DNA of 64,000 bases from Lytechinus pictus (GCF_037042905.1 NC_087250.1:13704001-13768000); one strand, 5' to 3'. Shown: positions 22,477-56,670, counted from the stretch's first letter. Translations and numbers: made by a program. Notes: generated by a model from the sequence alone, not told the origin.

Positions 22477-22610
22477 GTATGAATACATGTGGATGGATGG
22501 AGAGAAATATAAGAAGCCCACAGCCCTCCCTGCAACAGACTATATCAACAATCTCATGGATTGGGTCGAACAACTCATCAATAATGAGAATATATTCCCT
22601 ATTAATACAG
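22477..22610 (+). CDS. MOB3: MOB3-like coding exon ([44 protein letters not shown])
   Basis: ttatAG acceptor; GTATAG donor at 22611; 134 nt, phase consistent; conserved MOB motif. Confidence 0.95.
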
Positions 22611-22802
22611 GTATAGTTTTATTGACCATATAAACAATGCCATCGACAATGAGAATATATTCCCTATTAATACAGGTATTGTTCTATCGACCATATATTA
22701 ACATTCTCATCAACAGTGAGAAGATATGAGAAGAACGTATAGCTTGAAACCATATTCCAGCCAATAGCCAAACGCTGTGAGAGTTAAAAGATGTAATATG
22801 CG

Positions 22803-22975
22803 TAATAATGATAATAATAATAATAGTAGTAGTAGTAGTAGTAGTAGTTGTTGTAGTAACAGTAGTAGTTGTAGTAATAGTAGTAGTAGTAGTAATAGTA
22901 AGAATAATAAGAATGATAATAATAATAATGATAATGATAATAATAATAATGATGATAATAATAATAATGATAATT
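22803..22975. repeat. (AAT)n/(AGT)n/(GAT)n microsatellite
   Basis: Directly visible. Confidence 0.95.
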
Positions 22976-23044
22976 AAAATAATTTCACACTGCCATGTAA
23001 GAGTAATCCTTCACTGTTTATTTTTTTGTTTTTTCCTTTTTCAG

Positions 23045-23160
23045 AGGTTAGTTTCCCTAAATCGTTTGTCTCCACATGTAAGAAGATGCTTACAAGATTA
23101 CACAGAGTTTTCATCCACGTCTACATCCATCACTTTGATAAACTCGTTGAGATCGGAGCG
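23045..23160 (+). CDS. MOB3: MOB3-like coding exon ([39 protein letters not shown])
   Basis: Long T tract plus cAG acceptor; GTAAGT donor at 23161; 116 nt. Contains the HVYIHHF Zn-binding His motif. Missed by the ORF track because this frame lacks an upstream start. Confidence 0.95.
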
Positions 23161-24140
23161 GTAAGTGCATGAAAATCGTATTTCAATAGGGAAATAGTCA
23201 AAGTTATTGCATTGGCAAATGGATTATATAATGATGAATGTATTGATAGATAGTAGTGTCCTCAGCCATGCTTACATCCATCACTTCGAAAAACTTGTTG
23301 GGATTTTAGCAGTAAGTGCATGAAAATCATATTACAAAAATATAGATTTTAGGGGAATAGTTAAAATTATTTCATTGGCAAATGGATTATATTTATAATG
23401 CTGAATATAATGATAGATAGTGTATTCAGCCATGTTCCATCACTTCAAAAACTTGTTGGGATTTGAGCGGTAAGTGCAGGATAATCATATAACAAAAATA
23501 TAGATTTTAGGGGAATAGTAAAAATTATTGCATTGGCAAATGGATTATATTTATAATGATAGATACTGTCTCCAGCCATGTTTACATCCATCACTGCGAA
23601 AAACTTGTTGGGATTTGAGCAGTAAGTGCATGAAAATCACATTACAAAAATATAGAATTTAGGGTAATAGTTAAAATTATTGCATTGGCCGAGGGTGCAT
23701 GATGGATAGAGTTTTTCCCTATACATCGCTTTGATAAACTTGTTGAGATTGCAACGGTAAGTAGGCGTTTCAGTTTGAAATGATTTTAATGATAATAGGC
23801 ATTTGTATAGCGCCATCTATCTAGAAACAATCTATTCCGAGGCGCATTGTTATTATTACAAAATCATATTACAAAATAGATTAGAGGGGAATAGTTGAAA
23901 TTATTGCATCAGCAGAAGGTCAATATATATGCTGTCTATATTCAGATGATGAAAAGAATATTAATCCTACATTCACCACTATGGTGAACTTGCTGAGATG
24001 GGAGTGGTAAGTGAATGAAGAGCAAATAATTTAAGATTTGATGCTGGGGAAATAGTTACAAGTATAGTATATCAGGGAATAGTTAAAACTATTGCATTGG
24101 AAGAGGGTGCATTATGCTGTCTACATTCAGAAGATGAAAA
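23115..24140 (+). repeat. Tandem array (about 150-bp unit) of a MOB3 exon 3' end + donor + proximal intron
   Basis: CATCCATCACTT...AAACT.GTTG.GAT...GC.GTAAGT unit repeated; donors at 23161, 23312, 23470, 23622, 23757, 24007. Confidence 0.9.
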
Positions 24141-24308
24141 CAGTTGGTAAAGGTATATGGGCAAACTTTCATTCTTGGCGAGCTGAATGTACATGGTTCC
24201 CCTTTGCTTTATATAGCTACATCAATATTGACTTTGAAGTGATAGTTTGCATTATTAACTGAAGTCAAAATGTGATTATTTGCTTTATATTTTGTGTCTG
24301 AAACCACA

Positions 24309-24487
24309 ACTGGGCGTTGTGGCGTATGCCTGTAATCCAAGCTATGTTGGGAAGTTACAAATTGATGCAGAGGTTCGGGGTTCGAGCCCTGGTCACGTCT
24401 TTTGGATGGTGACGTTAAAGGTCGGTCTAAGACGTAAATAATCATATCTGATTGATACATGTCTGACAAAACTCAAATACACACACA
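24309..24487 (+). mobile_element. Candidate 7SL(Alu-domain)-headed SINE
   Basis: Head ACTGGGCGTTGTGGCGTATGCCTGTAATCCAAGCTA, B-box-like GGTTCGAGCCC, and a (CA)n tail. Confidence 0.65.
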
Positions 24488-24676
24488 TTTAATTATAAAA
24501 GAGGAAACCGGTTTCTATACTTCTCTCCAACTGAAATATAAAAAACTCGAGGATTCCTTTGTACATTATTATTGCACTCTAGTCTTCAATGCTTGCTTTA
24601 CTGCTAGCATTTACATGTACGTGAACTGTGTAAATTACACTTTGTCATATGATTGACTTTTGATAGCAAGATTCTT

Positions 24677-24988
24677 GGGCCTGTATTCTGAAGTCGGGTT
24701 TAACTTAAACTCAGGTTTAAAGTTGTGGTTTAAGTATGGGAAGCCAAAAGTATCAATTTTTTTTATTAAGTTGTAGGTTTCTCCTGTTTACTGTGCTCTT
24801 TCCTGATTCATCGATGGTGAAGACAATAATTTTTCATACTTCCTAGACAATTATGAATGATTTGAGAGCCAAATGAGCTGAAATATGATATCTCTATTGT
24901 TAGTGATTTATGTAACAATTGGCTGTCCATACTTAAACCACAACTTTAAACCTAAGTCTAAATTAAATCCGACTTCAGAATACGGGCC
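24677..24988. mobile_element. Harbinger-like MITE (second copy at 29355-29665)
   Basis: GGCC(T/C)GTATTCTGAAGTC ... GACTTCAGAATACGGGCC TIRs. Confidence 0.8.
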
Positions 24989-25148
24989 ATGATATGCAAA
25001 ATGTGATCATTTATACCATGCTTGTCAGTCAAATTGTCAAAATTAAGTTTCATAAATGAAAAGAAAAATATATGAACAAAAATTATTACTATGATGAAAT
25101 GATAAATGTAATGATGGTGGATTGCTGTATTTCTTTTCTTCAATACAG

Positions 25149-25235
25149 GAAGCACACATAAACACATGCTACAAACACTTTTATTTCTTTGTGCATGAGT
25201 TCAACTTGGTTGATTCAAGAGAACTAGAACCTTTG
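25149..25235 (+). CDS. MOB3: MOB3-like coding exon ([29 protein letters not shown])
   Basis: tacAG acceptor; GTAAGT donor at 25236; 87 nt, phase 0-0. Matches the MOB3 C-terminal region EAH.NTCYKHF.....EF.L.D..ELEPL. Confidence 0.95.
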
Positions 25236-25976
25236 GTAAGTAAAATGTTCCCAGGTTTCTGCAATATGGAAAACAACTTTAATAAACAGAATTCGGGAAG
25301 AATGTTTGTTACTTTTAAGTTGGTAGGTCCATATTAGATTAACAATCAGTTCACCTTGCAATTGTAGTAATAATAATAATGTTTCTGAGTTCTTTACTTC
25401 CCAAAATCCCATCAAAGCGGCCAACCATTAGATTTGTATGTAATTATTGCTGTTTTGCGATCAAAATTACAGCATTTACAATTTTTCTTCATAACATACA
25501 ATCTTCTAAAATGGTTTTTTTTTTCGAAGACAATAATATCCTATTGTTTAGAAATTGCCTCTGTAGATCGCTATTTTATAAAGCTTATGTTAGTTTAGGT
25601 AATTGTAATTTCAGGTAACCTCATTAAAGGTCAGAGGTCATTTATTGATGTGTATTTCATACTAGCATTATGAGGAATACTGAATACAGTGTCTTATTAC
25701 CATAGGTTGGCAGGTCTTGTTTTGAGGGTCATGTTGAGAAAATATTTCTTTTTTTCGTTGGAATTTTCCAAATTCTTTTTGCTGTAATGGTTCCTTTTTT
25801 TGGTCGCACAAGGATGGCAGCTCTGGCATATGCATGGACATCGTCGCGCCGGCATCTTAGAGGCTGAAGTCATTGCCTTGCATGCGTTGGTGGTCTGCAG
25901 CTGGCGCACCTGTTGCTACTCCACTTGCATATTCTTATATCCCCTGAGGGTGGGTGCAATGAGATTATGATGTCAT

Positions 25977-27723
25977 TAGGAGTGGGCTATACATGAGTCA
26001 AAAATACTTTTTTTGTCAATTTAATATGGCAACAGTTTTTATCTATTCGTTGTAATGTATCTCAACATGAAAATGACAATATTTTTTTGTCTCGGGTCCG
26101 AGAAAAAAGTGTGTTGGGCCAAAATCCAAAATGGCCGCCAAACCCCCCAAATCACAGTTTTGGCCACCATTGGTGGTCTTTTTCTCTGGTTTTGGTGTCT
26201 ATTCATATGTTTTTGGGGGGCAGGCAATCTGTTTTACCTGAAATTAGTACTTAAAAACCATTATTTGTAGGGTTAAAGGGTCATTTTACCTAAATTTACG
26301 CATTTTTAGACCCATTCTTCAGCCAAAAATTAGGTTTCATCGTCTTGTGGTTCGTGGATATTAGATGATACGAGTTCCACAATAGCAAGTAGTTTCATAT
26401 GCTACATGTATATTGCTCTTGTTCAGGAATCTACTTTGGGTTCTACAGATATTTTCAAAATGTATCTTATTAAATTAAAAAAATGTTATTTATCTATAGG
26501 GGCCATACAGTATACAATGTATTGTACATACTGCACTGCATACATGTATGTCCATGCATTGACCACCATGGCAAGGTCTACAGGTAGATCTATATAAACT
26601 ATAGTGTCATAGAATTACCTCTTCAATTAGATGCCTCAGAAATTGAAGATACTGTATGTTTTGTCTCAGAAATTAAGACATGTTTTGTCAAATATGCTCA
26701 TTCAGGGGGCGGAGAGAGGAAAATATCATTAACAATGGATTATAGTCAACCCCACATTATGGCATTTACACTGTGGCTATTCTGTTACCATTATGGTAAC
26801 TTTTTTGCCATTCAATTGTAACTTGCATGGAATCCTTGATTCTGATTGGCCGTTGATAAGCGTTACCATGGTAGTTAACTGACAATATAAATATAGGGTT
26901 AGACACAACCAGGTACATGTAAAAACAAGCCTCCAAATAAAGAAGATATGGCTAAAAATGTGATGTGCGTACATGTACATGATGTTTACACTGTATGTGC
27001 AATTTATGTTAAGCATCGGGTTACATATTTCCATCATGTATATCAGCTAACAAGCAATCAAATCCACAAGTCACAATCTAATTCTAAACCTCGGGAGCTC
27101 ACTTCTATGACACTATAGTTTATATACAGGACTTGTTATATGTCATGGAGGTCAATGCATGGATATATGCAGTGTAGTATGTACAGTACATTGTATACCA
27201 TACAGCCCCTATGGACCAATGACGTTTTCTTTTATTTGATAAAATATATTTCGCAAATATCTGTCGACCACAATTTAAAGATATTAAAGCTCTATATCTA
27301 TATGAAGCTGCTTGCTACTGTTCAACTGGTATCGTCTAATATCCAAGAACCATGAGACAATGAAACCTAATTTTTGGCTGAAAAAAGGGTCTCAAAATTA
27401 GTAAATTCAAGTAAAATCACCTTATCACTCTACAAATAATGGTTTAAAAGTACTAGTTTTAGGAAAAACAAATTGCTTGCCCATAAAAACACACAATGTA
27501 TGAATAGACACCAAAACCAGAGAAAAAGACCACCAAATAAAGAAGTTGTGGCCAAAACTGTAATTTGGGGGGTTTTGGCGGCCATTCTGGATTTTGGCCC
27601 GACACACTTTTTTCTCGGACCCGAGACAAAAAATATCATTTCATGTTGAGATAAGGTAAAAGGAATACAAAAAAACTGTTGGCACAGTAAAACCCAAAAT
27701 CACCCATTTATAGCCCACTCCTA
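25977..27723. mobile_element. Non-autonomous foldback element with ~650-bp arms and a 7-bp TSD
   Basis: ATGTCAT|TAGGAGTGGGCTATA ... TATAGCCCACTCCTA|ATGTCAT. Confidence 0.85.
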
Positions 27724-28653
27724 ATGTCATATGCATAGGGTCTTTTAAAAAAGCTCATACTTATTGGTATATTTTAGTACTATAGATTTTTTACCTCCAT
27801 TTCTCAAATTCAATTGATCGTATGAAGGGTGAACTGGGGCTATTAGGAAACCTGTGTTAACAAATCTCTGCTTTGAATTGCTGTAAGAAGCCACCAGTGT
27901 AGGAAATATATGAAGGTGATAGGTGATTTTGCCTTCATGGCAGCCCAAATCGCCCTTAAAATTGCAAAATGGAATTCTTCGGGGCAACCATCATTTCTAT
28001 ACATGTAGTTGCCCCAATAGTTGCTCCATAAATATTCAAGAACATTGAGAAAATGAATTTTCTACATGCATGAGAATAATGCCTTTACAGCATTATTGCC
28101 CACTGGGGAAAAAAGCCCTTCAAATGAAAGAAAATAGCCCCCAAAATTCAGCTATCGCCCCAATGTGGCAAAAAAAATTGCCTCTAAAAATATTTTCTAC
28201 CCTGGAAGCCACTCATATTCTTGCATTTGCTTTTGCGAAGTGTTAATAAAGCTTTGAGCATGTTCTTTTCAGCACTTATTAAAAAGAGTTTTGTGAGAAC
28301 AGACAATGGTGAATATATGAAGAGATCTCTTTATTCTAAGATTTATTTTAACTGTAAAATCTTGCTCAAGTTTCGTTCATGTGCTGTCATATCTTGAAGA
28401 AAAAAACATTTACTGTGGGGCTAGTTTTAGAATTTCCATGAATTGATAAGCGACAGTCTTTGCTATCCAATCAAATCCAAAGTTCATTTGATCTAGCGCC
28501 TTTTCCTTTCGGTTACAAAGCGCTGCACACACTACTCCATGTGTGGGCCACTAAAACAATAATTAAACACCTCAGAATGATTACCTTAATCCATGCATTT
28601 TACTGTCTCGGTGTCTAATTCATATTTCTATCTGCTTTTGTTTCTCTTCACAG

Positions 28654-28683
28654 AGAGATATGATCCACAAAATCTGCATATGA
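28654..28683 (+). CDS. MOB3: MOB3-like terminal coding exon (RDMIHKICI*)
   Basis: Strong polypyrimidine tract plus cacAG; 9 codons then TGA; resembles the vertebrate MOB3 ending (KEMT.RMCH-like). Confidence 0.85.
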   Translation, partial: RDMIHKICI

Positions 28684-29354
28684 GCGCTCCTTTGACCTTT
28701 GACCCTTCCTCCTGACCTAGCACCTAGGGATATCTACAACAGCTCATTGACCTTTGAACTCTTGGGCTCACCATGTCTTAATATGTGAAGGCTCCAATTT
28801 GGATGTACGTTCCTTGTAGAACTAACAGCAAGAAGTAGCCCTGATCTTACTTCCCCATGATGGCATCTCAGCTTTGAACTTTGACCTGACCTTTGTTCAG
28901 TTACACATGACCTTTGAACCCATGTCACATGAAGGCTTCTCCTGAGATCTATACACTTTTGTGTTCCGCTATATTGAACCCATTCATCCTATAACCGCCA
29001 ACTGCAACCAAACCTAGCTCTTCGTGTGCGTATTCTCAGCTGAACTTTGACCTTTGTCCAGGTGGACATGACCTTTGAACCGATGTCATATGAAGCCTCC
29101 TATATTAAGCAACAACCACACCAAGAATGTAGCCTGATTGAAAATCTTCAAAAGCAGATATCTGGCCTCACTAGTTTACAGAAATACTCTATGTGGCCTC
29201 CTGAGATATTTATTATACCTATCACAGATTTATTACAATGTGCTAGTTTTTAATATCTTAATTGATTGTAGTAACCATAATATTTTCTATTCAAGTTGTT
29301 AGAGGTGATGTATTGCCCAGACGTTGGTTTATATTCACTTTGTCTATACACAAT

Positions 29355-36229: not shown

Positions 36230-36460
36230 GTTCTAGTGACAAAAAGTATTGCATTGATTTAGTACACTCAAACTTAAATAGATGTCGAAATTTTGAATGA
36301 TAAATTGTTCTAGTGACAAAAAGTATTGCATTGATTTTGCAGAATCAAACATGAATAGATTTTGGAATTTGAAATGATAAATTGTTCTAGTGATAGAGTA
36401 TTGCATTGATTTTGTACAATCAAACCTGATTAGATGTCAAAATTTTGAATGATAAATTGG
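36230..36460. repeat. About 77-bp tandem repeat, 3 copies
   Basis: GTTCTAGTGA...AGTATTGCATTGATTT...GAATGATAAATT repeated three times. Confidence 0.85.
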
Positions 36461-37029: not shown

Positions 37030-37990
37030 TGGGAGAGAGAGCGAGAGGGGGGAGGAAAGAAAGAAAGAGCATAAGAAGGGAAGGAAAGAGTTAACAGCTT
37101 AGTAAGAAAGAAAGAGGGTTAGTAAGAAAAAAAGATTGTAAGAAAAAAGGAAAGAGTTAGCAGGTTAGTAAGAAAGAAAGAAAGAAAGAACGAGTGTAAG
37201 AAAAAGGGGAAGTTAGCAGGTTAGTAAGAAAGAAAGAGGGTTAGTAAGAAAGAAAGAGAGAGAGAAAGAAAGAAGGGGGCTAATAGACATACATGCAGGG
37301 ATTATAAGGTTTAGTAAAGGCAAAGGAAAAAGAAAGAAGAGGGATATAAAAGAGGGTGAGAAAAGGTGCTGAAAAAAAAAACCACTGTAAAATTCTTTTT
37401 TTTTAAGTGCTTAATGAAATAAGATAATCACGTAAATTATGCAGGCGAGACTCCACGAGGTGTTCCATCATCGTGCCTTATCGATTTGTTAAAAGAGAGG
37501 TTGCAATGATAGAAATGAAGAGGGAGGGGGAGGGGTGCGAGTATAGGAAATGAGAGGATGGAGGAGGTGTTCCATCAACGTGTCTTATCGAGAACATAAG
37601 TTTACGAAAAGGGGTGAAAAGAGAGATTGCAATGATAGAAACGAGGAGAAAGAGATAGGGGAGAGGTGCGAGTATAGGAAATGAGAGGATGGAGGTCGAT
37701 CGGAGGATAGAAAAGACTAAGTGGAAGAAGCGAGGGGTGATGAGTAGGAAGGAAGAGAGAGAGGAGAAAAAAAAAGGGAGGGGATGGGAGGAGGGGATTT
37801 AAAGGATTAACTGAAAGAGTAGATGGAGGCGGTAGTATAATTTTTTAAAGATAGGGGCATGATATGGGGACGAAGAAGCCAGTAAATCAAAAGGGGGGAA
37901 GAGGGGTGTGTAGGAAAGAAATGAAAGAAGATCGGAATCATAAGAGAGAAGAGAAAAGGGAAGAATGAGTTAAGAAAGAGTGATGAGCGA
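37030..37990. repeat. Purine-rich (GA/GAAA) low-complexity tract with an internal ~120-bp duplication
   Basis: Directly visible; GAGGTGTTCCATCA...GGTGCGAGTATAGGAAATGAGAGGATGGAGG occurs twice (37457-37695). Confidence 0.85.
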
Positions 37991-38039: not shown

Positions 38040-41000
38040 TAGTATCCCGTAATTAGAAACCAACTGGAATAAAATTATTGGAAATGGTTTTTTGACTGAT
38101 TTGAGTAGGTATGGGTGTCAACATTTACCAAAAAAAGTTAGGAGGAATACGGGTTGGGAAAAGTGCTTTTTTTTTAAGGTCAAAGGTCAATGACCTTTTT
38201 AAATATACTGTATCATGGTATCTCCCAGATAAAATATTACAGGTTGGTGATCATGGTGTCAAAATGCACAGATTCTTACAAGAAGATCGAATAAAATCAA
38301 ATCAATTACCTACAATGCTCATTCACCCATGAAATTCAAGGTCAAAGCCTTTCAAAGTTCAATGACCTTTATTACATTATATACCATATACGGTATAATG
38401 GTATCTCTGAGATGAAAAGGTGCAGGTTGGTGATCTAGGTGTCAAAATGCAGAGGTTCTTACAGGAAGATCAAATAAAATCAAATTAATTACCCAGAATG
38501 CTCATTCACCCATGAAATTCAAGGTCAAAGCCTTTCAAAGGTCAATGACCTTTTTAACATTATGTATCATACTGTATAATAGTATCTCTGAGATGAAACG
38601 GCACAGGTTGGTGATCGTTGTATCAAAATTCCCAGATTCTTACAGGAAGGTCAAATAAGATAAAGTTAATCACCTAGAATGCATACTAATCCATAAAGTT
38701 CAAGGTCAAAGGTCAGTGACCTTTTTACGTAGGCTATATATCGTTAAAGGTATCTCTGAGATAAAACGCTGCATGTTGGTGATTTTGATGTCAAAAAGCA
38801 ATTTGTACAAGAAGATAAAAAGGACTCAAAATAATCATACATAATAATCCAATATCCAAAGTCAAAGGTCAAAAGTTGATAACTATTTATATATCCATGC
38901 ATGATTCCCCCCAAAAAGAAATTAATCCATTATATTCACATTTTATTTGTGAATAATAGAAAGAAAGATAACTATTTGTAATGAAAACTTGGAAGTCTAA
39001 TAATTTCACTCTGAAATAAGGATAAAAAATGGCCATGGAAAATATATTTAGGAGTTAAAGGTCAATCAACTATGTCAATAACGTCAGGGAATTTAACGTG
39101 ATTGTGGCATGTAGGTATAGTGATTCTGATGGGAAAAACCTGACATGCGTGGAAAAAGAACACAAATTTAATAGTTGAATCCTTGACCAAAGTTCGAGGT
39201 AAAATTTGATCAAATAGCACTTTTTCTTATAATATACTGTAATGCATTGACAAAAGTGTAAAAAAAATCATGTGTGATATAATTTGAAATGGTGACAATG
39301 GTGAAGTTACCTTAAGTAGCAGCATTTAGATATATGCATTTTATAAATCTTAATCAAGGTACTAATTTCTCTGTAGCAATAGGTCACTTACCTCAAATGC
39401 TATAATCAATACTATAACACTATAACGTAATCTGTAAATGGAAAGGATAGGCCTAACTCTTATGGCAAGCATCATCCGAGAACATTTTTATATAGCCAGG
39501 GACAATGACGAAAAATTAAAATAAGGCAATCATTAGAGCTTCAGCTTTTGTCATAGATGAAGTGAAGTGTCTCAACTTCAGCAAAGAGTAATTGAACTCT
39601 TGAAAACCTTCTGACATTTTCAAGACTTTGATCTGGCCCATTCAATGAAAGCCTTACGTTCTGTCAAGGGATATCAGACCAGGATCTATAGTATTACTGA
39701 TAATTGCACAGCTTGATTCTCAAGAACTGGAAGTGGTGCTGTAGGAGTTTTGTTAGGTCGATGGATGTGTACTTGTAAGCTATTATCTCCTTTTGAATTT
39801 CATTGTTATATGCCTAATTTGTGCATGATAACAATCAGTTGTTCTGGACCAAAAACATGATCCTCGTACAAACTGATACCTAGTAGAAGTAGCATCATGG
39901 GTAACGTACGGCAGAGAGCAGATATGAAGTTTTGTCTTGCAGCATTAGCATCACAAGAGATTCTGGCAGCTCGCAATGAAATGATGAAAGGTAATTGATA
40001 ATAATACGGGAATTAACCTTTCTTGAAGTTGATATATATGTAATTTACTACATGTATGCAGAAGCTGCAGCTCTAATGATGACCTTCATTTCATCATCCC
40101 TCTGCTGTTTGGAAATGCTCTCAGATGATGCTAGCTGTGACATGAGAGTTAGACCTGTCCTATCCATTTTCAGAAGATTAAGCTAATAGTTTATAGTATT
40201 TATTATAGCATTGAGGTGAGTGGCCTATCGCTGGAGAGAAAAGACACGACAACCTTGATTTAGATATAATGATGCATTAAATGCTGCATGCTACTCAAGA
40301 TAAAAATCATTTCAAATTATATACTTGATTTCATTTATTTTTTCAGTGCTTTTGGCAATGCATCGCAGTATATGAAAAAGTGTTATTTGGTTATCAATTT
40401 TTTTTACTTAATTTCCACTGATATTTTGGAAAGGGCTCATTGACCTCTGACCCCTAAATACATTCTCCATGGCCTTCATTATTTCAGACCAAAATCACGA
40501 AACCTCCATGTTTTCATTACAAATTAGCCATGGTTATTTACATTATTCAGATATAAAATATGAACACTAAAAATATTGTTTTTGGTTATTTTTATGTCAT
40601 ATAGATTATATATTTCCTCCGATCTAGGATTTCAACGGTGAAAGTTTATTCTTTATACTTATTTTAGTGTTGTTAAATAATTCTTGTACAAGTCTTTGGA
40701 TTTTGGCACCAAGATCACCAACCTGCAGTGTTTTATCTCAGAGATACCATTATTATTATCTAATGTTAAAAATGACATTGACCTTTGTCCTTGAATTTTA
40801 TGGGTGAATGTACATTTTCTATGCTTAATTTTATTTTATCTTCCTGTAAGAATATGCGTGTTTTGACACCAAGAACACCAACCTGCACCGTTTTATCTTA
40901 GAGATACAATTATATAATATGGTATATATAGTATAAAAGGTCATTGACCTTTGGCCTTAAATTTTATGCGTGAATGTGCATTCTAGGTACTTAATTTTAT

Positions 41001-41629
41001 TCTATTTGATCTTCTGGTAAGAATCTGTGCATTTTGACACCATGATCACCAACCTGTGATTTTTCATCTCAGGGATACCATTATACAGTATGGTATATAA
41101 TGTAAATAGGTCATATTGACCTTTGAAAAGCTTTGACCTTGAATTTTATTGGTGAATGTGCAGTCTAGGTACTTAAATTTATTTTATTTGATCTTCTTGT
41201 AAGAATCTGTACATTTTGACACCATGATCACCAGCATGTACCTTATCATCTCAGAGATACCGTACAGTATGGTATATAATGTAAAAAAGGTCACTGACCT
41301 TTTGAAAGGCTTTGACCTTGAATTTTATAGGTGAATGTGTATTCTAGGTCATTAATTTTATTCTATTTGATATTCTGGTAAGAATTTGTGCATTTTGACA
41401 CCATTATCACCAACCTGCGCCTTTCCATCTCAGAGATACCATTATACAGTATGTACAAAAAGGTCATTGACCTTTGACCTTGAAAAAAAGCACTTTCCCC
41501 AACCCGTATTCCTCCTAACTTTTTTTTTGGGTAAATGTTGACACCCATACCTACTCAAATCAGTCAAAAAACCATTTCCAATAATTTTATTCCAGATTGG
41601 CTCTTTTGGGGTCTAATTTAGGGATACTA
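38040..41629. mobile_element. 3.6-kb Academ-like element with long TIRs and ~180-bp subterminal repeats
   Basis: TGT|TAGTATCCC ... GGGATACTA|TGT (3-bp TSD, TAG...CTA termini); arms mirror each other for more than 1 kb. Confidence 0.85.
39600..39965 (-). pseudogene. Degenerate transposase-like coding remnant inside the Academ-like element
   Basis: Minus strand reads AARQNFISALCRTLPMMLLLLGISLYEDHVFGPEQLIVIMHKLGI*, then YNNEIQK in a shifted frame. This recalls the LG..L.H.FGS..LI..LH.LG...SY.E..K segment I associate with Academ-type ORFs (from memory). Confidence 0.4.
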
Positions 41630-43269: not shown

Positions 43270-45601
43270 AATAATCATCGTCATCATCATTGCCACCATT
43301 CATCATCATCAATAATTACAATCATCATTACCATCATCTTCATTATCACCATCATCACCATCATCATCACTATCATTTTCATCATTATCATCATCACCAT
43401 CTTCACATCATCTTCATCATCACCGTCATCATCACCATCATCATTACCATCATCATCATCATCACCATCTTCATAATCGTCATCATCATTATTATCATCA
43501 TCATCACCATCATTACCATCATCATCATCATTACCATCATCATCACCACCATCATCATCATCTTCATCACTATCTTCATCATTATCATCATCATCACCAT
43601 CTTCATCATCATCTTCATCACCTTCTACATCATCACCACCATCATCATTACAATTATCATCCTTACCATCATCATCACCATCATCATCATTATAATCATC
43701 ACCATTTTCATCATCATTATCATCATAACCATCATCATCATCATTATAATCACAGGGCGCGACAAACCCGCTTGCCCGGGGCAAGTGAAATTGACGTGCG
43801 GGCAAGCATTTTTCAAAGTCCATTGCCTGATCGGGCAAGTGCTTGTTTTGAAAATGAAAAAGATAAATTGACAGTAAAGTTTAATAATTTTTTGATAAAT
43901 TGCAATCATCGGCCAATTATCTCTCATACAATGTGATACCAGTAAAAAAAAAGTGGAAACATGTCAAATCAGCGCCAATTTACCGACATTTTATCGCCAG
44001 CGGTCCCGTTCGATGGGGGCTGCCATTTTACTTTCTAAACTACACTGTGCGCATGCGCTACCAATCGACGAAGGAGCTAGCTGGGGAAACCTCTCTCTCG
44101 CCCTCTGAGCGCATGCTCTAATACATCGGCGCTACAGTACATGTACGGACGTACACGAGCGATCGCAAGCCAGTCGACTCTCGAGCTAGATCGCGCTGAA
44201 TGCATGCAAGCTTCGGACTGACTCGGCCAGGACCAGGGTGAACAGACATCCCGTATTTTATTCATTTCTAAAACAGTTTAGTTTTTTTTTTTTTTTTAAT
44301 ATATATAAAAAAACACCAAATATCATGTGGATTTTTGTTATATGATTGGATTGTTTTTATTTGCTTGAAGTTTGAACTTTTTCCTCTTTCTTTCTTTTCT
44401 ATCCTTCCTTCTTGCCCTTTTTGTTACATATCTATTTTTATTTCCTTATCCTTTCTCTCTCTGTTCATTTTCTTTCTTTCTTTCTCTTACTTGCCTTCTT
44501 TATTACATTTCCTTTTTCTATTTCCTTCATTCCTTCTCCCTTCCACTCGTTTATTTTCGTTCTTTCTCTCCTTCCATTATTTTCTTCTTTTTTTTTCATT
44601 CTGGCCTCCCTTCATTCTTTCCTCCCTCTCTTTCCTCCTTTCTTTCTTTCTTTCATTATTTATTTCATTTTGTCCTTATTCTTTCTTTCCCTTTCTTCCT
44701 TCATTCCTTCCCTCCTTCTTGTTTTCTTCTTTCTTTCAAGAATGAAGGAAACATTTTCTTTCCTTCTTTCTTTCCTCTTCCCTTTTTCTTACTTTCTTTT
44801 TGTCTTTCTCTTCTTTATTTTGACTTTCACACATTTATTCATCTTCCCTTCTTTTTTATCTATTTTTATTCTCTCTCTCATCCTTCTTTAATTAGAACTT
44901 TCTTATATTTTTTTATTATTTCCTTCATTTTCCCCTTCATTTTTTCTTTCTTTCTTCTCAATTCATCTCTTTTCTTTCTCTCCTTTATTCTTTCGTTCAC
45001 CCTCCCTTCCAATTCTGTATATTTTTTTCACAAGTCTAACACTGTGTAGCCTTCTTTCTTGATCTTTTTTTTGTCGATTGTCCTGTATTTCATAATTTTG
45101 TGAAATCTTGTCACCCTGGCCAGGACTCGGCTTCAACTTCAAACCAAATAAACAATGAGTTGTCAGACTAAAATAGGCTACTTTTGTCGTCGTGATCGGC
45201 GACCAGAACAACTTGAACAAGAGTCAAGAAAAAGAAATGCCAAGGGCAGCGCCAGTAAATCAAGTTCAGCCAGGATAGAAAAGAATAATTAAGAGCAAAA
45301 GAATTTTTGAAAAAAAATCGGGCAAGCAGTTTTTTCTATCGGGCAAGCAGATTTTTTTATCACTTGCCCGACAGGGCAAGTGATGATTTTTTTTTTTGTA
45401 GAGGCCTGTAATCATCACCATTTTCATCATCATCATCATCATTACCATCATCACCATCATTATCATCATCACCATCTTCTTCATCACCATCATCTTTCCC
45501 AAGTATTGTAGGAGTCTTATAGAGTGCAGTAGAATACTTTAATAAGTGAATAGTTTTTGCAATCTATTATTATTATCATAATTATCATTATTATTATTAT
45601 T

Positions 45602-45647
<46 letters not shown>

Positions 45648-45968
45648 CCACCATCATCACCACCATCATCACCATCATCATCATCATTACCATCATCATC
45701 ATCTAATCATCACCATCATCATCACCATCATCACCATCATCTTCTTCACCATCATCACCATCATCATCATTACCATCATCATCATTATCATCATTAACAT
45801 CATCATCTTCATCACCATCATCATTTTATCACCTTTCACAAGTATTGTAGGAGTCTTACAGAGTGCAGTAGAATACTTAAATGAATAGTTTCTGCAATAT
45901 ATTTATTATTATTATCATTATTATTATCATCATCACCACCACCATCATCATCATCATCATTACCATCA
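43270..45968. repeat. Long compound (CAT/CAC/TAT)n microsatellite field interrupted by a transposon and by LINE tails
   Basis: Directly visible; it generates the poly-H/D/I/M ORFs in the track. Confidence 0.95.
43753..45408. mobile_element. hAT-like non-autonomous element with a 6-bp TSD and an internal CT-rich tract
   Basis: TAATCA|CAGGGCGCGACAAA ... TTTGTAGAGGCCTG|TAATCA; subterminal CTTGCCCG/CGGGCAAG motifs. Confidence 0.75.
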
Positions 45969-46604
45969 TGGGTACTGCTTCATGAACTCGGGCAGTAGTC
46001 TTATAATCGAAGAGGTACTTCAAGCTTCAGGCTGTAATTAATGCAATTTAAATCAGGCAGACAAAATGCTGAAATTTTTTATCGAAATGGGACAAGGAAT
46101 AACGAAGTTACTGTATGGCATTTAAAGGTTTATAATTCATTTTGGTGAAACAATCCTATGCATAGCAAGATGATGTTGTCATCTCCCCACGTATTCTTTT
46201 GTGATTTTTATTTCTTTAAAAAAAAAAATCAAATTTTGAACTCTAAGAATGTAACAATAGGAATTGGTATCTGATTTTGATATAATATAATCATTGCACT
46301 GCAACTTGTTCTGTTAAAATGGAGACAGAAATGTGATACATGTGCATGGACATGGAGAGATAAAATTATTATGATCTCATGTACGTAATAGATTGAGATA
46401 AAGGAAAGTAGGAACATGACACCAGCCTACACTATGTACAATGTAGGCCTACATGTTGTGGATTCATGATTGCATTTATACATGTCTGTTAAAATTCATG
46501 TTTGATATTTTGCTAAAGCCTAATCTTTAAAATTCAGTAAATCTTTGTCATTGTTTAATTACATTTGGATGAAATTTCAGTGTTTTTACCATTTAGTATT
46601 TTAA

Positions 46605-48646: not shown

Positions 48647-48846
48647 ATGAGTGGTGAGTTTTGGTTGATCTCTGCCCCAGGCGAGAAGACCTGCCAGCAG
48701 ACATGGGAAAGGCTGAACGGCGCCACCGTCAGGTTCGATTTGTCCTTGAATTACAAGTTTCCGATACCAGACCTGAAGGTCGGAACACTGGACACGCTGG
48801 TTGGGCTCTCGGATGAGCTGGGGAAACTGGATTCTTATGTTGACAA
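48647..48846 (+). CDS. ATP6V1C: V-type proton ATPase subunit C, coding exon 1 ([24 protein letters not shown]...[25 protein letters not shown])
   Basis: ttcAG|ATG; GTAAGT donor at 48847; 200 nt. Hallmark [17 protein letters not shown] and [15 protein letters not shown] motifs. Confidence 0.97.
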
Positions 48847-49318: not shown

Positions 49319-49404
49319 TATCACTCACAAGCTTGCCCATTACCTCGGTGAGGTATTAGAAGACCAGAAAGACAGACTTGCAGAGAATCTCATGGCCAAC
49401 AGAA
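49319..49404 (+). CDS. ATP6V1C: V-ATPase C coding exon 2 (NITHKLAHYLGEVLEDQKDRLAENLMANR)
   Basis: CT-rich acceptor; GTAAGT donor; 86 nt; phase consistent. Confidence 0.95.
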
Positions 49405-49504: not shown

Positions 49505-49591
49505 AACATGATAATGTTATTAATAATAATGATAATAATGATAATGATATGGATAGTGATAATGATAGTGATCATGATAACGATAATGATA

Positions 49592-49638
<47 letters not shown>

Positions 49639-50819: not shown

Positions 50820-50914
50820 TGGACCTGAGCACGTATGTAACTAGATTTCAATGGGACGTAGCCAAGTATCCAATCAAATTACAGCTAAAGAGCATCGCTG
50901 AGATCATTAGCAAG
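50820..50914 (+). CDS. ATP6V1C: V-ATPase C coding exon 3 ([32 protein letters not shown])
   Basis: ttttAG acceptor; GTGGGT donor; 95 nt; TRFQWD.AKYPIK motif. Confidence 0.95.
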
Positions 50915-50929
50915 GTGGGTATTTGTCAT

Positions 50930-51165
50930 CTATTAATTCATTTATTCACAAATTAATTTATTCTTCAATTCATTTTTTCATTCATTCATTTATTCATTCA
51001 ATTCATTTATTCATTCATTCAATTCATTTATTCATTCATTCATTCATCAATTCATTCGTTCATTCATCAATTCATTCATTCATTTATTCATTCATCAATT
51101 CATTTATTCATTCATCAATTCATTTATTCATTCATCAATTCATTTATTCATTCATTCATTCATTT
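50930..51165. repeat. (ATTC)n microsatellite
   Basis: Directly visible; continues in degenerate form to about 51750. Confidence 0.95.
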
Positions 51166-52003
51166 ATTACCGCTAAAGAGCATCGCTGAGATCATTAGCA
51201 AGGTAGGTAAAGTGTCATTCATTGGGTTTATTCATTTATTCATCAATTCACATTAATTTGATATATTGTAATAATGATGGCCAAAATTTATATCACGCTT
51301 TACCCAAATGGCCCAAAGCGCTCACAATTTCAGTTTACCTAATTCGAACAAAAATATACAGAATAACATACATATAAATAAAGGCAGTTGCCGAGAACAA
51401 AAAAAAAGATTTTAGGGACCACTTGAATGACTCAAAGAGTCCCTCACTCATTCATTTGTTTATTCATAAATTCATTTATTTATTTTTTATTTATTCATTT
51501 AGCCGTGTATACTTTTACTCATGCATTTATGTATTCATTCATTAATTAATTATTTTTTTCTTTATTCATTCATTTATATATTAATTCATCTGTTCATATT
51601 CATGTATTCATTTATTCATATATTCATGAATTCATTTTATTTTGAAGCATTTATTCATACTCATTTCCATTTACCCATTTATTTATTCACTCATTCAGTC
51701 AATATACAGTGATCAAAATTGTTTTATTTGTCTTCTTCATTCATTTAATTTCTTTTATTCGGATGCTTGAATTACATCAATGCTAATTTGGGTCTGTAAT
51801 CTTGTCATATAGTGACAAGGTATTACATTTAGTGACAAAATGATCGCTCAACCCGTTTGTCATTTGACCAATAAATTGCTGCTGCTAATGATGATGGTTC
51901 TTATATAGCACCGGTATCCATCTCTGCTGGGTGCTCATGGCGCTCAAAAATAGGAAATGTCGTGTCACAAATTTCATTGTCTTCAAACAGTGCTTGGAAT
52001 CGT

Positions 52004-52278
52004 GGAAGCGCCGTGGTGTAATCAGAGGGTCGTGTGTTCGAATCCCACCATGGCCTAGCGTCCTTTGGCAAGGCGTCAATCCACACTTTGCCACTCTCAC
52101 CCAGGTGCTGATTGGGTACCGGTAGGAAACAACCGTCATTGTGGTTGGTTTAGCAAGTTTGCGCCTTACAGGCTGCTTGAAATGCTATGAATCCAGTGAC
52201 CGGGTAATAATAATTGTGAAGCGCTTTGAACAGTCGTAGATTGATAAAGCGCTATATAAATGCCAATTATTATTATCA
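52004..52278 (+). mobile_element. tRNA-derived SINE, same head family as 10547, with a 23-bp head deletion
   Basis: Near-identical B box and body; AGCGCTATATAAAT plus (TAT)n tail. Confidence 0.85.
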
Positions 52279-52372
52279 TCATTCAGTTCAGTCTGAAATG
52301 TAACAAAATACATCCACCTGTATTTCAGTTCATATTTGACATGATTTGTATTATTTCCTTTCTTTTTTTCAG

Positions 52373-52464
52373 CAAGTATCACAGATGGATGGCGATCTGA
52401 AGACCAAATCTCATGCATATAACAGTATTAAGGGAAATCTGCAAACACTAGAGAGAAAAGCCAC
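52373..52464 (+). CDS. ATP6V1C: V-ATPase C coding exon 4 (QVSQMDGDLKTKSHAYNSIKGNLQTLERKAT)
   Basis: Polypyrimidine tract plus cAG; GTAAGT donor; 92 nt. Confidence 0.95.
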
Positions 52465-52945
52465 GTAAGTTACAGGTCAAAGGCCAAGTCAATGGCCTTT
52501 GGAGCACTATGTTAACCGATGGTTTAATGGATAACTAAAGTTGTATGTGGGATACATGGATAGTGATCAAGTTTGACCAAATTGCTGTTTTGGTGCAAGT
52601 TTCAACTCATAACCAAAATCTGAAAATGAGCTAGCATACAGAGTCTGATTACAGTAGTATTAAACTCTGTTATGCACAAGGGCAAACTAATTCTTACTCT
52701 CGTATTTCATCAAAATTTGTTGACTGACAAGTTGTTAGATCTGACAATTTCCTTGATTTTGATTGGCTCAGAAACATCGTTACTATACTAATTGTGGGAT
52801 AAAAAACAGGATTTGTTGGAAGGATAATCTGACAAATCTTGTGAAATGTTCCGGGAAGACAAAAATTGAGGTCAGACGTACGGAAAAGATAATTATTTCA
52901 TGAAATTGCTCGGATATAAAAGTGGAATTCTCTTTTATTTTACAG

Positions 52946-53044
52946 AGGAAGCTTATTGTCGCGGAACCTTGGAGACATCGTCAAGAAGGATGATTTCATC
53001 AATGAGTCAGAATATCTCACAACGCTGCTTGTCGTCGTTCAAAA
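52946..53044 (+). CDS. ATP6V1C: V-ATPase C coding exon 5 ([33 protein letters not shown])
   Basis: tacAG acceptor; GTAGGA donor; 99 nt; SEYL.TLLVVV motif. Confidence 0.95.
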
Positions 53045-53543
53045 GTAGGATATATTCTCATCTATTTCATATGCATTTATAGTATTAAAGGAGAGTGACA
53101 CACTGGGAACCAGTTAGCTTGTATGAAAATAGAAAAATAAAAAAATGCACTTATAAATGATTATACAATTCCCAGTGCTTATACTCTCTAAATTAGCAAC
53201 ACAAATGAAAACAAATATTAAAAAATATTATTTCTATCTTTTTGAATATTTTTGAAAATGTCATTCATATACGTTTTTACTCTTTCTTGTATTGGTACAC
53301 ATGTAAACCAATATTTGGTTACTTCAGATTATGTTCATGAGTAAAATAGTTGTAAATTTGAGGCTAAAAAGTTGTGTTTCTCTATGTATTATATGTATAA
53401 ACACGGCTCTTAACAAAGCCCAACCCTAGAAGTCTCCGTCAACTCTAAGTGGGGGGGGGGGGGGGGGGCTTTAATAAAGTCATATCTGACATTATTTCTG
53501 AAATAATTCTCATGTTATTGTTTTGTTTCTTTCTCTTTGGCAG

Positions 53544-53612
53544 GAATCTCTACTCTGATTGGACTTTGAAGTATGAGAAACTTTCAGACATGGTTGTACC
53601 AAGGTCAACAAG
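53544..53612 (+). CDS. ATP6V1C: V-ATPase C coding exon 6 (NLYSDWTLKYEKLSDMVVPRSTR)
   Basis: ggcAG acceptor; GTGAGT donor; 69 nt; YE.L..MVVPRS motif. Confidence 0.95.
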
Positions 53613-53760
53613 GTGAGTCAAACAAGCAAATGTTTTTTTTATATCCTTTGCTTAAAGATTGTTGCACTGAAAGTGGACACAAAGAGTAAACAAACAGATT
53701 TACTAGGAAAAAAACTTTTGCCATGAAATAGTTCATTTTCCTTGCTGATGTCACGCTTAT

Positions 53761-53973
53761 GGGGTGTTGCAAGAAACTTGCGATCAATTGCAAGTCTATT
53801 TTTGGACCCTAAATCAATCATGTGTCTTGTAGTTAATTGCAAATTAGTGATTGATTGTTAATCTTTAAACAAGAAGTTTAATCTGATGTGCTACAACTAT
53901 CGTTGATCTATCATTTGTAAAATTGCAACCGAATATTTGCAATTGATCGCAAATATTTTCTTGCAACACCCCC
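53761..53973. mobile_element. Harbinger-like MITE
   Basis: GGGGTGTTGCAAGAAA ... TTTCTTGCAACACCCC. Confidence 0.8.
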
Positions 53974-54536
53974 TAAGTCCATGTTTTCCAGAGGGAACAA
54001 AATGAACTATACATGTACGTTTTTCCGACCCCCCCCCCACGCGTACTGCACTCAAGACCCGTACACTGTCATGCATGGCAGCTGAAGCCACTGTGCGCAT
54101 CTCACTGGGTGTGCCTAGCACTGGGGGGGGGGGGGGATGGGCTGCCTGCAAAGTGATCAGCATATCCGAAAAGTTAATGAAATTGTTCCTAAGTTATTAG
54201 TTTTTTAAATATTTATTTTCTCTTTTTTGATGTGATGAGGAATGATATAGGTGGAGGGGATATAAATCAAGTGTACAATGACTCATTCTCGGAACAGTAA
54301 AACTATACACACTCAAGGGTGCTATTGATGTTCTTTCAATGTGAATAATTTCAGCCAGATTCTCGAGCGTCATAGTATATTTGTACATTAACATGGAGTT
54401 TGTGGGGTTTGTCATTATCCTGAATGGTAGCAGTTACAAATGGAATACGGTTCTGCGCTCAGAATGTTGCATTGTGGGTAAGGAACTTGTCCAGAATTGA
54501 ATGGTTGAGGACTTTAGTTGGTACTATAGTGGTGGT

Positions 54537-54815
54537 GGAGCGTTGTGGCCCATTGGATTAATCTCCGGACTTTGAAACAGAGGGTCGTGCTTGGGTTCAA
54601 ATCCCAGCCATGGCGTAGTTTCCTTCAGCCAGAAATTAATCCACCTGGGTGAGGTGAATGGGTACCAGGCAGGAATTTATTCCTTGAAATGCCGAGCGCG
54701 TAAAAGCTGCTTGAGCTACAGCCGGGGTAATAATATCCAAGTCCTTTGGAAGCGAATAGAGACCTTACTCATAATGTGTTAGGCGCTATACAAGAACCGA
54801 CTATTATTATTATTA
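54537..54815 (+). mobile_element. tRNA-derived SINE
   Basis: GGAGCGTTGTGGCCCATTGG (A box), GGTTCAAATCCC (B box), GGTGAATGGGTACC core and (TAT)n tail. Confidence 0.8.
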
Positions 54816-55171
54816 TACTAGACTTCAGATAATTATTTGCATTGAATGGGTGAAAGCTTGTCTTCAGTATTGATTCTACGGTATGTTTCATGAAGCACTT
54901 TGTCAGTGATTTTCACAAGCAATTCATTCTGAGCCAATCAGATGCAAGGATTTCAGTAGCTTATAACAATAGTGAAAAATCAATGATTATTTGTTTCATG
55001 AAATGCTCCCCTGTTTAAATCAAGAGTGCTTATTAAAAGAGCAGAGTACATTACCTGAAGAAGACAAGAAAGCTTTAGCCAATCGGATGCAAGGATTTCA
55101 GTGGCTTTTAACAGTTTTTGGTGGAAATCGTTTATTTTGTGAAATACCCTCCATGTTTGTTTATTATGCAG

Positions 55172-55264
55172 GATGATCTATGAGGACAATGATCATGGTT
55201 TATACAGCGTCACATTATTCAAGAAAGTCGTAGATGAATACAAGCTACATGCCAGGGAAAACAA
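55172..55264 (+). CDS. ATP6V1C: V-ATPase C coding exon 7 (MIYEDNDHGLYSVTLFKKVVDEYKLHARENK)
   Basis: tgcAG acceptor; GTGAGT donor; 93 nt; VTLF.K.VD......RENK motif. Confidence 0.93.
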
Positions 55265-55611
55265 GTGAGTATTGATCCATGCTTGCCAACTGTCCCCATT
55301 TAACCCTAATACTCTTGACATTTATTGCAAAATATCCGCGGCACAAAATTGTTTCCTCACCACTCTCTAACATTTTTAGACCAATTTTGCGATGCCGGGG
55401 AGAGAAAACAAGAAAATTTTCATCCACAATGTCCCTATTTTTAGTGAAACTTTGCCCACAGGCTTGTGTAAAAAGTTTAGCAATGTCCCTATTTTGTTAT
55501 TTTTAATTTATTTTTTGTGATACCTTGTACCTGTTAAATGGACTTGAAATGTTGGCAGGTATGTGAATCTAAGATTCGTCAGTAGTGAATTCATTATAGG
55601 GTGATAATTAG

Positions 55612-55704
55612 AATAGGGAAAAGGGACAATGATCGGGGTTTATACAGCGTTACATTATTCAAGAAAGTCGTAGACGAATGCAAACTACATGCCAGGGAAA
55701 ACAA
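55612..55704 (+). pseudogene. Tandem duplicate of V-ATPase C exon 7 (pseudo-exon or alternative exon 7b)
   Basis: 55624-55704 matches exon 7 with 6 substitutions and keeps the GTGAGT donor. An AG lies at the homologous position (55610-11), giving an open 93-nt frame. Confidence 0.8.
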
Positions 55705-55989
55705 GTGAGTATCAAAACAAGCTCCATTTATTATAGTGTGAGAATAAAAGAAAGAGATAGTGATCATGGTTTATACCATGTAACATTTCTGTTATTTTCA
55801 GCAGGTACTTTTCACAACTAATTGCTTTTAATCTGCAATATCGATTTAGCTTTAATTTTGCATTGAATGGGGAATTTTGGAGTTTATTTTTTTTTTATTT
55901 CCAGGGCTCTTTTGATCATTTTGGGGGCGAAATCGCCCTGAGCCCCTCTGTATTTTTTCCCTGGTTTATACAAGCGTCATGTGAGTTGA

Positions 55990-56670
55990 TAATAACCATT
56001 CATTTACTTTTACCTTTAACCTCTTGCATATAGGTTCACGGTGAAAGATTTTATATACAAGAAAATGTAACTCATAACCATACATTTAACCTTTGAACTT
56101 TGACCTCTTACACAGATGTATTATCTGAGAGTGTACATACAATGATCAATGTTGCTAATCAGAACATTCTCATATAACTTGAAATTTGACATATTGCATA
56201 CGTTCAGGGTGGAATGGCTCATATAAATTGAGATGTTTGAATAAACTTTAATGCTAAACTAACCTTTCATTTAATATTTGAACTTCGACCTTTTTCACAG
56301 GTTTATTGTTAGAGATTTCACATACAATGAAGAGTAATGCTAACAATAGACTAATTTAAACTTTGAACTCTGACCTTTTGTAGGTCTGTAGTAAGTGGTC
56401 TCATGTACAATAAAAATTAAATGCCAACTATAACCTTTCATTTAAACTTTGAACTTTGACCCCTTATGTAGGTTCATGGTCAGAGATACAATGAAGAGTA
56501 ATGCTAACAATAGACTTAGTTCAACTTTGAACTCTGACCTTGTGTAGGTTTGTAGTAAGTGATCTCATGTACAATACAAATCCAATTCCAACCATAACCT
56601 TTCATTTAAACTTTGAACTTTGACCCCTTACATAGGTTCATGGTCAGAGAGTTCACATACAATGAAGAGG
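55990..56670 (+). repeat. Tandem array (about 85-bp unit) of the V-ATPase C exon 8 acceptor + exon start
   Basis: CTTTGAACT.TGACC...YAG|GT....G..AG.GA.....TACAAT unit; AGs end at 56033, 56115, 56300, 56383, 56471, 56547 and 56635 (functional). Confidence 0.9.

Follow-up and report, generated by a model that had tools for sequence, protein, structure and literature searches.

Genes of the window and their exons

The window considered here is a 64,000-nucleotide stretch of DNA from the sea urchin Lytechinus pictus (GCF_037042905.1, NC_087250.1:13704001-13768000), which carries two genes, one for a MOB3 kinase activator and one for subunit C of the V-type proton ATPase (V-ATPase C). At five exon edges of these genes, a short piece of DNA that contains the edge together with its splice signal recurs in the adjoining intron, once or several times. 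Repeats of this kind are described from amphioxus as “mirages”, minisatellites whose first unit spans an exon-intron boundary (PMC3087553, PMC3902484), and the five features of the window are quite probably mirage-type junction minisatellites made from local DNA.

The two genes have a total of 17 coding exons, six in MOB3 and 11 in V-ATPase C. Near the tblastn matches of V-ATPase C, exactly one chain of GT-AG exons gives, letter for letter, the 382-amino-acid protein P0002, entered in a public source as “V-type proton ATPase subunit C-like [Lytechinus pictus]”. The coding exons of this chain lie on the plus strand at 48647-48846, 49319-49404, 50820-50914 and 52373-52464 (exons 1-4), 52946-53044, 53544-53612, 55172-55264 and 56636-56729 (exons 5-8), and 57286-57383, 58123-58258 and 59903-59989 (exons 9-11). 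The six coding pieces of MOB3 match P0121, a MOB kinase activator 3B-like protein of S. purpuratus against which they were placed (up to 11142, 14754-14852, 22477-22610, 23045-23160, 25149-25235 and 28654-28683). Two public L. pictus V-ATPase C proteins exist, P0001 and P0002, which differ at three residues (78, 195 and 198), and the window encodes P0002; this difference probably reflects two assemblies or haplotypes.

The first-pass annotation of this DNA had claimed duplications at two MOB3 and three V-ATPase C exon edges, five events among 17 coding exons, each with the exon edge and its splice signal inside the duplicated piece and with all extra copies on the intronic side of an intact reading frame. 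All five are present at the same or nearby coordinates, and the count of exons is right. With boundaries taken from the P0002 chain and from P0121, and copies from blastn, the exon edge and the splice signal lie inside the duplication in five of five cases. The extra copies are intronic and the frames intact, the authentic exons alone encoding the annotated V-ATPase C exactly.

Anatomy of the junction duplications

All five are head-to-tail repeats in which the authentic edge of the exon forms the terminal unit, and the junction copies are 67-96% identical. Three arrays are clearly tandem, namely those at 22569-22727 (65 nt, 2.4 copies), 23111-24140 (about 151 nt, 6-7 copies) and 56069-56669 (85/164 nt); the copies of V-ATPase C exons 3 and 7 are local but set apart by 244 and 335 nt of other sequence, and are head to tail only in a loose sense.

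The donor-side array of MOB3 coding exon 3 spans 22569-22727 on the plus strand, with a period of 65 nt and 2.4 copies according to Tandem Repeats Finder (TRF). The authentic exon, at 22477-22610 on the same strand, matches PF03637 and, by tblastn, residues 92-136 of P0121, and ends in the donor ACAG/GTATAG (a slash within a motif marks the exon boundary). The 65-nt unit consists of the last 42 nt of the exon, GTATAG and about 23 nt of intron. By blastn, 22583-22632 and 22648-22697 are 94% identical over 50 nt, and there is a third fragment of 22 nt. The decoy donor lies between 22675 and 22676, and its use would add 65 nt, shifting the frame. MOB3 coding exon 4 (23045-23160, plus strand, donor GCG/GTAAGT, with PF03637 and P0121 matches) carries a larger donor-side array at 23111-24140 on the plus strand, which TRF, self-alignment by blastn and an alignment of the units resolve into six units and a degenerate seventh. 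Each unit of about 151 nt holds about 50 nt of exon, GTAAGT and about 100 nt of intron, so that GTAAGT recurs at 23161, the authentic site, and at 23312, 23470, 23622, 23757 and 24007, the decoys. Worked out by hand, use of the MOB3 decoys would shift the frame by +65 or about +151 nt.

In V-ATPase C, coding exon 3 (50820-50914, plus strand) ends in the donor AAG/GTGGGT, and its copy at 51166-51209 on the plus strand, found by blastn against 50878-50921 with 42 of 44 nt identical, lies 288 nt downstream. This copy comprises the last 37 nt of exon 3 followed by GTAGGTA (GTGGGTA or GTAGGTA across the two copies), and an (ATTC)n microsatellite detected by TRF at 50932-51168 separates it from the exon. 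If used, its decoy donor would lead to a stop after 13 codons.

Coding exon 7 (55172-55264, plus strand, 93 nt, phase 2-2) has a near-complete copy, here called exon 7b, at 55600-55704 on the plus strand, recognised by blastn, by translation and by a match to residues 214-242 of the Pfam V-ATPase_C family. Exon 7b is preceded by the acceptor TATAG/ and followed by the donor /GTGAGTAT. Its 105 nt, a multiple of three, form 35 open codons in the same phase as exon 7, inside an open frame of 39 codons, and 55184-55272 and 55624-55712 are 93.3% identical over 89 nt by blastn; the 5′ end of the copy encodes VIIRIGKR where exon 7 has MIYE. The 5′ part of exon 7 recurs once more, in truncated form, at 55735-55790 on the plus strand; this third copy, found by tblastn and blastn with a 16/16 core at 55761-55776, has an upstream insertion in common with 7b. 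A further 11-nt trace of exon 7 at 55962 is weak (E 0.019). Part of the spacer between exon 7 and 7b, at 55397-55577, is an old dispersed repeat for which a genome search gave ten other loci at 70-83% identity.

The last array is an acceptor-side one. At 56069-56669 on the plus strand, TRF, blastn and a genome search delimit an array with an 85-nt sub-unit and a 164-185-nt unit, in which the acceptor and up to 34 nt of V-ATPase C exon 8 (56636-56729, plus strand, placed by the chain giving P0002) recur in five upstream copies. The decoy acceptors AG/ lie at 56115, 56300, 56383, 56471 and 56547, and the authentic AG/G between 56635 and 56636; read by hand, the decoy at 56300 runs into TAA. To judge from the sequence, splicing at any of the decoys would harm the message, except possibly in the case of 7b.

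These arrays are probably best accounted for as follows. A stretch of 44 to about 290 nt containing an exon edge and its splice signal would have been duplicated in tandem, sometimes repeatedly, through what we infer to be slippage or unequal exchange. The exon-contiguous copy would stay functional, as the most upstream donor on the donor side and as the last acceptor on the acceptor side. Since the exon-contiguous site would be the one used, the arrays would be tolerated and the gene would survive, and since only that copy would work, the remaining copies would be intronic by definition; both the intronic-side placement and the intact frame would then follow. The extra copies would be drifting, decaying pseudo-sites, and the junction arrays one component of a load of tandem and inverted repeats that is very high in this stretch of the chromosome.

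Probable origin from local unique DNA

In the 812-Mb assembly, the MOB3 array window 23161-23470 (units 1-2) and the exon 8 array each match only their own locus, where “local only” is a limited statement because the search passes over words of very high frequency and gives scores to the top candidates alone. The idea that the junction arrays are transposon cargo was rejected since both arrays that were searched genome-wide, two of the five junction arrays, behave in this way.

The two non-adjacent copies fit a tandem duplication followed by growth of, or insertion into, the spacer. A reading of the 440-nt exon 7 spacing as one large tandem unit was rejected, as only 89 nt align at 93% and the spacer is in part the old dispersed repeat. 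How a tandem junction copy turns into a distant one is shown by locus L064 elsewhere in the genome, where two copies flank a 270-bp miniature inverted-repeat transposable element (MITE). At positions 950-1479 of that locus, the authentic exon and a decoy copy of the acceptor have this MITE-like element exactly between them, and a genome search with the MITE gave 3233 first-look candidates, the best-scoring full-length copies being 86-90% identical.

Sea urchins are highly heterozygous, and collapsed or stacked haplotypes could in principle be written as tandem copies by an assembler. Two of the copy pairs are 93-95% alike, and an amphioxus globin mirage was mis-assembled in a draft genome (PMC3087553). 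Against such an artefact stand the 15-30% divergence, with indels, of most copies, the presence of up to seven units per array, the size of the pieces (44-290 nt, far below that of haplotigs) and the recurrence of the same architecture at unrelated loci, so that this explanation is very improbable.

The same kind of array at other loci

Junction arrays also occur elsewhere in the genome, at L045, L064, L076 and L056, three times in L061, and at a kinesin exon. L056 has an acceptor-side array with three decoys. L061 (G000:C6:7259801-7262800) is a kinase gene with three junction arrays in 3 kb, at positions 654-1094, 2473-2598 and 2699-3000 of the locus. One of them, L061b, is a donor-side array with a 205-nt unit in which the decoy frame itself matches Pkinase 94-122. 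Another, L061d, is a 30-nt acceptor copy lying 96 nt upstream, and L061e is a donor-side array with a 55-nt unit in six or more copies. Within the locus, the authentic copy is followed by five others, of which the final one is cut at the locus end, and the array continues locally past this end.

The kinesin motor exon of L083 (G000:C9:19767450-19768649, positions 254-962 of the locus) was found by a separate route, via the kinesin profile table, and was excluded from the junction tests below. It is preceded by four tandem decoys that hold the acceptor and the first 117 nt of the exon, in units of 141-151 nt that are 88-93% identical. All copies keep ATAG/G, an open frame and a nearly unchanged peptide, and three of the four decoys score as kinesin exons in a profile search.

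Among the junction-array units of the window, L045, L056, L061, L064 and L083, seven of 13 measure 140-205 nt, near nucleosome size. Several units in this range are of 151, 140, about 150, 174 and 205 nt, and of 141-151 nt in kinesin.

Do duplications prefer exon-intron junctions?

The first-pass annotation had set a mutational process focused on exon-intron junctions against a null of survivor bias under a generally high duplication rate, and had named an equal frequency of duplications in mid-intron or intergenic unique DNA as an outcome that would refute its own claim. A plain coverage test was made by same-strand blastn self-alignment, with a spacing of up to 800 nt and a single score threshold. 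In the two window genes, the share lying in local repeats is five of 30 (16.7%) for junctions, 21.1% for positions in introns and 13.6% for those at most 700 nt from an exon; in the rest of the window it is 14.8%. An independent sample of 49 loci (178 kb) from the same genome was drawn, blind to the feature, around internal exons listed in kinase and myosin profile tables; here 3 of 142 junction points (2.1%) lie in local repeats, against 3081 of 77,290 control positions (4.0%). The local-repeat content of the window is 4-7 times that of this sample. Loci L004-L033 (27 used, about 100 kb, with nine arrays of which none overlaps the kinase match) were left out of the junction tests, as their exon structure was not established. 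Plain coverage thus gives no junction excess, either in the window genes or in the 49 loci.

With arrays counted as events, the window has five with a junction among ten, where placement by span predicts 3.3 (P 0.20) and placement by unit 1.65 (P 0.009). A listed junction point falls within 4 of the 21 array spans of the sample, for which 5.2 or 2.8 would be expected.

Genome searches, however, proved most mid-intron arrays to be dispersed repeats or foldback arms. The MOB3 intron 2 holds a foldback-like element at 15861-22034, bounded by an outer inverted repeat (15861-16260 and 21649-22034, 94%). Its arms, 16482-18411 and 19678-20710, consist of sub-repeats of about 200 nt and are mutually inverted, and its centre, 18422-19663, is a 1.24-kb dispersed repeat with at least 39 copies at 94-98%, which on these identities looks recently active. 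An intron-only array of V-ATPase C at 57443-57939 proved to be a dispersed repeat that measures about 500 bp and contains sub-repeats; its search gave 5403 first-look candidates, of which 40 were scored, and 54 places elsewhere at 67-92%. The repeat at 12071-12342 is formed by two adjoining copies of a dispersed element of about 75 nt. The remaining intron-only repeat in the two genes is a 37-nt pair at 54932 and 55077. Outside the genes, 36230-36459 and 28866-29101 are local-only arrays without a junction.

The sample was sorted in the same manner. Nine of its 21 arrays are dispersed or contain dispersed elements (L037, L040, L054, L059, L061a, L073, L080a, L080b and L081). Those of L045, L056, L074 and L076b have no match beyond their own locus, except that a single 73-nt stretch of L045 also matches a paralogous kinase exon, and L076a has no match in a cross-comparison of the sampled loci; L044, L061b, L061c, L061d and L071 are unclassified for dispersal. 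Four arrays that had counted as non-junction (L056, L061b, L061d and L061e) turned out, by Pfam scan and reading, to be junction arrays of neighbouring unlisted exons. Of the 12 arrays not derived from transposable elements (TEs), seven therefore hold a junction (L045, L064, L076a, L056, L061b, L061d and L061e) and five do not (L074, L076b, L044, L071 and the weak L061c).

With unit-sized random placement and a junction density assumed, from annotatable genes, at one per 800-400 nt, 2.0-4.1 of these 12 arrays would be expected to hold a junction (P 0.001-0.058). The figure becomes P 0.005-0.17 if three ambiguous TE-containing arrays are counted as local duplications, and P 0.02-0.29 if L061 is counted once. 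Of the six non-TE arrays in the two window genes, two of which, both at junctions, were covered by the genome searches, five hold a junction where 0.72-1.22 would be expected (P 7e-5 to 5e-4), in a window that was chosen for the feature. Slower decay of the selected copy lengthens detectability only about 1.3-fold by our own estimate from the blastn score threshold. A conclusion of no enrichment and a pure null was weakened once the mid-intron arrays proved mostly transposon-derived and the four arrays were reassigned to junctions. As regards the contrast drawn in the first-pass annotation, coverage favours the null and the non-TE arrays exceed expectation; duplications are equally common in mid-intron DNA by coverage, but the mid-intron arrays are mostly not unique DNA. 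Taken together, the window and the small blind sample suggest, without establishing it, a two- to three-fold junction excess.

A duplication process that prefers exon-intron junctions, with the arrays still as neutral by-products, can be put forward only tentatively. It would accommodate the share of junctions among non-TE arrays, which is above expectation in window and sample alike, the three junction arrays within 3 kb of the L061 kinase gene, and the several units near 140-205 nt, in the vicinity of the 150-160 nt reported for amphioxus globins (PMC3087553). Fork stalling or breakage at polypyrimidine tracts, nucleosome-bound exons and splicing-linked R-loops are possible causes of such a preference. 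Plain coverage speaks against a preference, as do the P values of up to 0.17 with the ambiguous arrays and up to 0.29 with L061 counted once, in a sample whose junction density was assumed and not annotated. Moreover, 5 of the 12 non-TE arrays lack a check for genome dispersal or were checked where a nearby MITE took the scored candidates, and unique arrays do occur away from known junctions (36230-36459, 28866-29101, L074 and L076b). By our own tabulation, the exonic share of the unit ranges from about 0.14 to 0.8, so that the units are not centred on the junction. The statement that in this sea urchin the germ-line formation of short tandem duplications of unique DNA strikes junctions about 2-4 times oftener than the remaining genic DNA, clustering by gene and with units often near 140-200 nt, is a conjecture, one that is somewhat more likely to fail than to hold.

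Fate of the decoy splice sites

If the arrays are neutral junction minisatellites, the decoys should be decaying, and several observations are of this kind. The CpG before GTAAGT is gone in three of the five MOB3 decoys. Exon 7b has an H-to-R and a Y-to-C change in a segment that is invariant across the five echinoid orthologues compared. At other loci, the signal is kept in one of three L056 decoys and in three of the four complete L061e decoys. By analogy with known cases, and because the annotated protein uses the authentic exons only, the decoys are probably silent and selectively neutral.

Four points weigh against an origin of the five features as neutral junction minisatellites of this kind. 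GT or AG is intact in each of the window's 12 decoy copies of a junction (1, 5, 1 and 5 in the respective arrays), and exon 7b keeps both signals besides. In the alignment of the six MOB3 units, GTAAGT is the longest invariant run (P about 0.016 there by our own estimate). This retention exceeds the expectation from 67-96% identity, but it is not compelling, since about half of the exon-derived MOB3 columns are invariant too. Secondly, exon 7b is a complete, open, in-phase exon with both signals and as such could be usable. Thirdly, the junction share of the non-TE arrays, five of six and seven of 12, exceeds the prediction of a uniform process. Fourthly, the exon 7 spacing would be explained only in part, the spacer repeat looking older, by its divergence, than the 93% copy.

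The retained signals are also what would be expected if the decoys were selected for a function, as landing pads for U1 or U2AF, as poison or alternative exons, or, in the case of 7b, as an alternative exon in the making. In units 2-4 of the MOB3 array the exon-derived part is preceded by CAG/, which would delimit pseudo-exons of 40-46 nt, and the exon 8 decoys end in AGA/GTAATG; the open, in-phase 105 nt of 7b with its two signals point the same way. Nevertheless, 7b appears in neither P0001 nor P0002, each of which is the sole member of its 90%-identity cluster; a 7b isoform could be in another cluster. A hand count of 7b against exon 7 gives three synonymous and three non-synonymous changes, indistinguishable from neutrality, and the residues altered in 7b are identical in all five echinoid orthologues. 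Signals have been lost in decoys of L056 and L061e, and the known precedents, human F7 and the amphioxus mirages, are silent. Selection for function is thus improbable, and the suggestion of the first-pass annotation that decoy sites are retained as splicing regulators finds no support in this analysis.

Relation to known systems

Amphioxus mirages are known in Adh3, troponin C, the globins BflGb6 and BflGb9, and PGBD5; they occur at 5′ and 3′ boundaries with units of 10-160 nt, their mechanism is called unclear and splicing is reported to be undisturbed (PMC3087553, PMC3902484). The globin units, of 150-160 nt, are 81-100% identical (PMC3087553). Length polymorphism and somatic instability are reported for the Adh3 and BflGb6 mirages, and amphioxus mirages vary between haplotypes (PMC3087553, PMC3902484). 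The urchin arrays share with these mirages the tandem units of exon edge and AG or GT, the occurrence at both types of boundary, unit sizes from tens of nucleotides to about 160 nt and the presence of 2-6 or more copies. They differ in their host, an echinoderm and not a cephalochordate, in that several copies are older (67-85% identity), and in that two of the five copies no longer adjoin their source, a microsatellite or an old dispersed repeat lying in the spacer.

The human F7 gene offers a second parallel, a variable number tandem repeat (VNTR) in intron 7, where a 37-bp minisatellite has its first unit spanning the exon 7 boundary, and where the pseudo-donors, although functional, lose to the most upstream site (PMC1557585). 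The 151-nt and 65-nt arrays of MOB3 have the same plan, an authentic donor followed by repeated pseudo-donors, which in F7 are silent (PMC1557585). The pseudo-sites of F7 are identical and were tested in minigenes, whereas the urchin copies are diverged. For the exon 8 array F7 has no acceptor-side counterpart.

Tandem exon duplication reportedly gives rise to mutually exclusive exons (Kondrashov and Koonin 2001; Letunic et al. 2002). Exon 7b resembles such exons in being a copy of an entire exon, placed in the following intron, with acceptor and donor signals, an unchanged phase and a length that is a multiple of three; unlike them, it is not in the annotated protein, differs at its 5′ end and has changes in invariant echinoid residues. 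Intron gain by tandem duplication is another process with which the names of Hellsten et al. 2011, Lehmann et al. 2010, and Gao and Lynch 2009 are said to be connected. In the Rogers model of intron gain by tandem genomic duplication, a local duplication copies splice signals (PMC2891723, PMC3443670, PMC3265369). That model starts from the duplication of an exonic AGGT and yields a new intron; in the window the duplicated piece is a junction that already existed, and neither an intron nor an exon has visibly been gained. The eleven V-ATPase C exons are all joined at pre-existing junctions with no extra intron, which is not what the model predicts. A search of the open-access literature found no paper on such junction repeats in sea urchins. 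The phenomenon is known from amphioxus and from human F7, and the urchin arrays add members of that kind.

Other repeats in the window

Besides the element in MOB3 intron 2, the window holds a second foldback-like structure at 38040-39593 and 40011-41629, with arms of about 1.5 kb that are made of 172-183-nt sub-repeats, inverted at 69-83% and separated by a spacer of about 400 nt. Long (ATC)n microsatellites and purine- or pyrimidine-rich tracts of opposite skew flank it (43274-43752 and 45411-45969; 37099-37365 and 44469-44993), with a GC skew of +0.38 for 36-38 kb and of -0.40 for 44-46 kb. MOB3 intron 5 contains a third inverted pair (25970-26614 and 27103-27730, 78%), and a 110-nt satellite at 4397-6768 has about 21 copies that are 83-95% identical.

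Significance

Arrays of near-identical splice sites offer natural experiments in how the spliceosome selects one of several equivalent sites, and junction arrays supply material from which exons, introns and poison exons can newly arise. They also mislead gene finders, since profile searches score both exon 7b and the kinesin decoys as real exons. With five arrays in two adjacent housekeeping genes and more at further loci, the amphioxus phenomenon occurs, and not rarely, in an echinoid. Should the junction excess hold genome-wide, it would point to an unrecognised source of structural mutation linked to junctions. Mirages would then mark a fragility of the junction itself, through the polypyrimidine tract, the exon nucleosome or a splicing-coupled R-loop, and not the random birth of minisatellites, and this may extend to other very polymorphic deuterostomes such as amphioxus.

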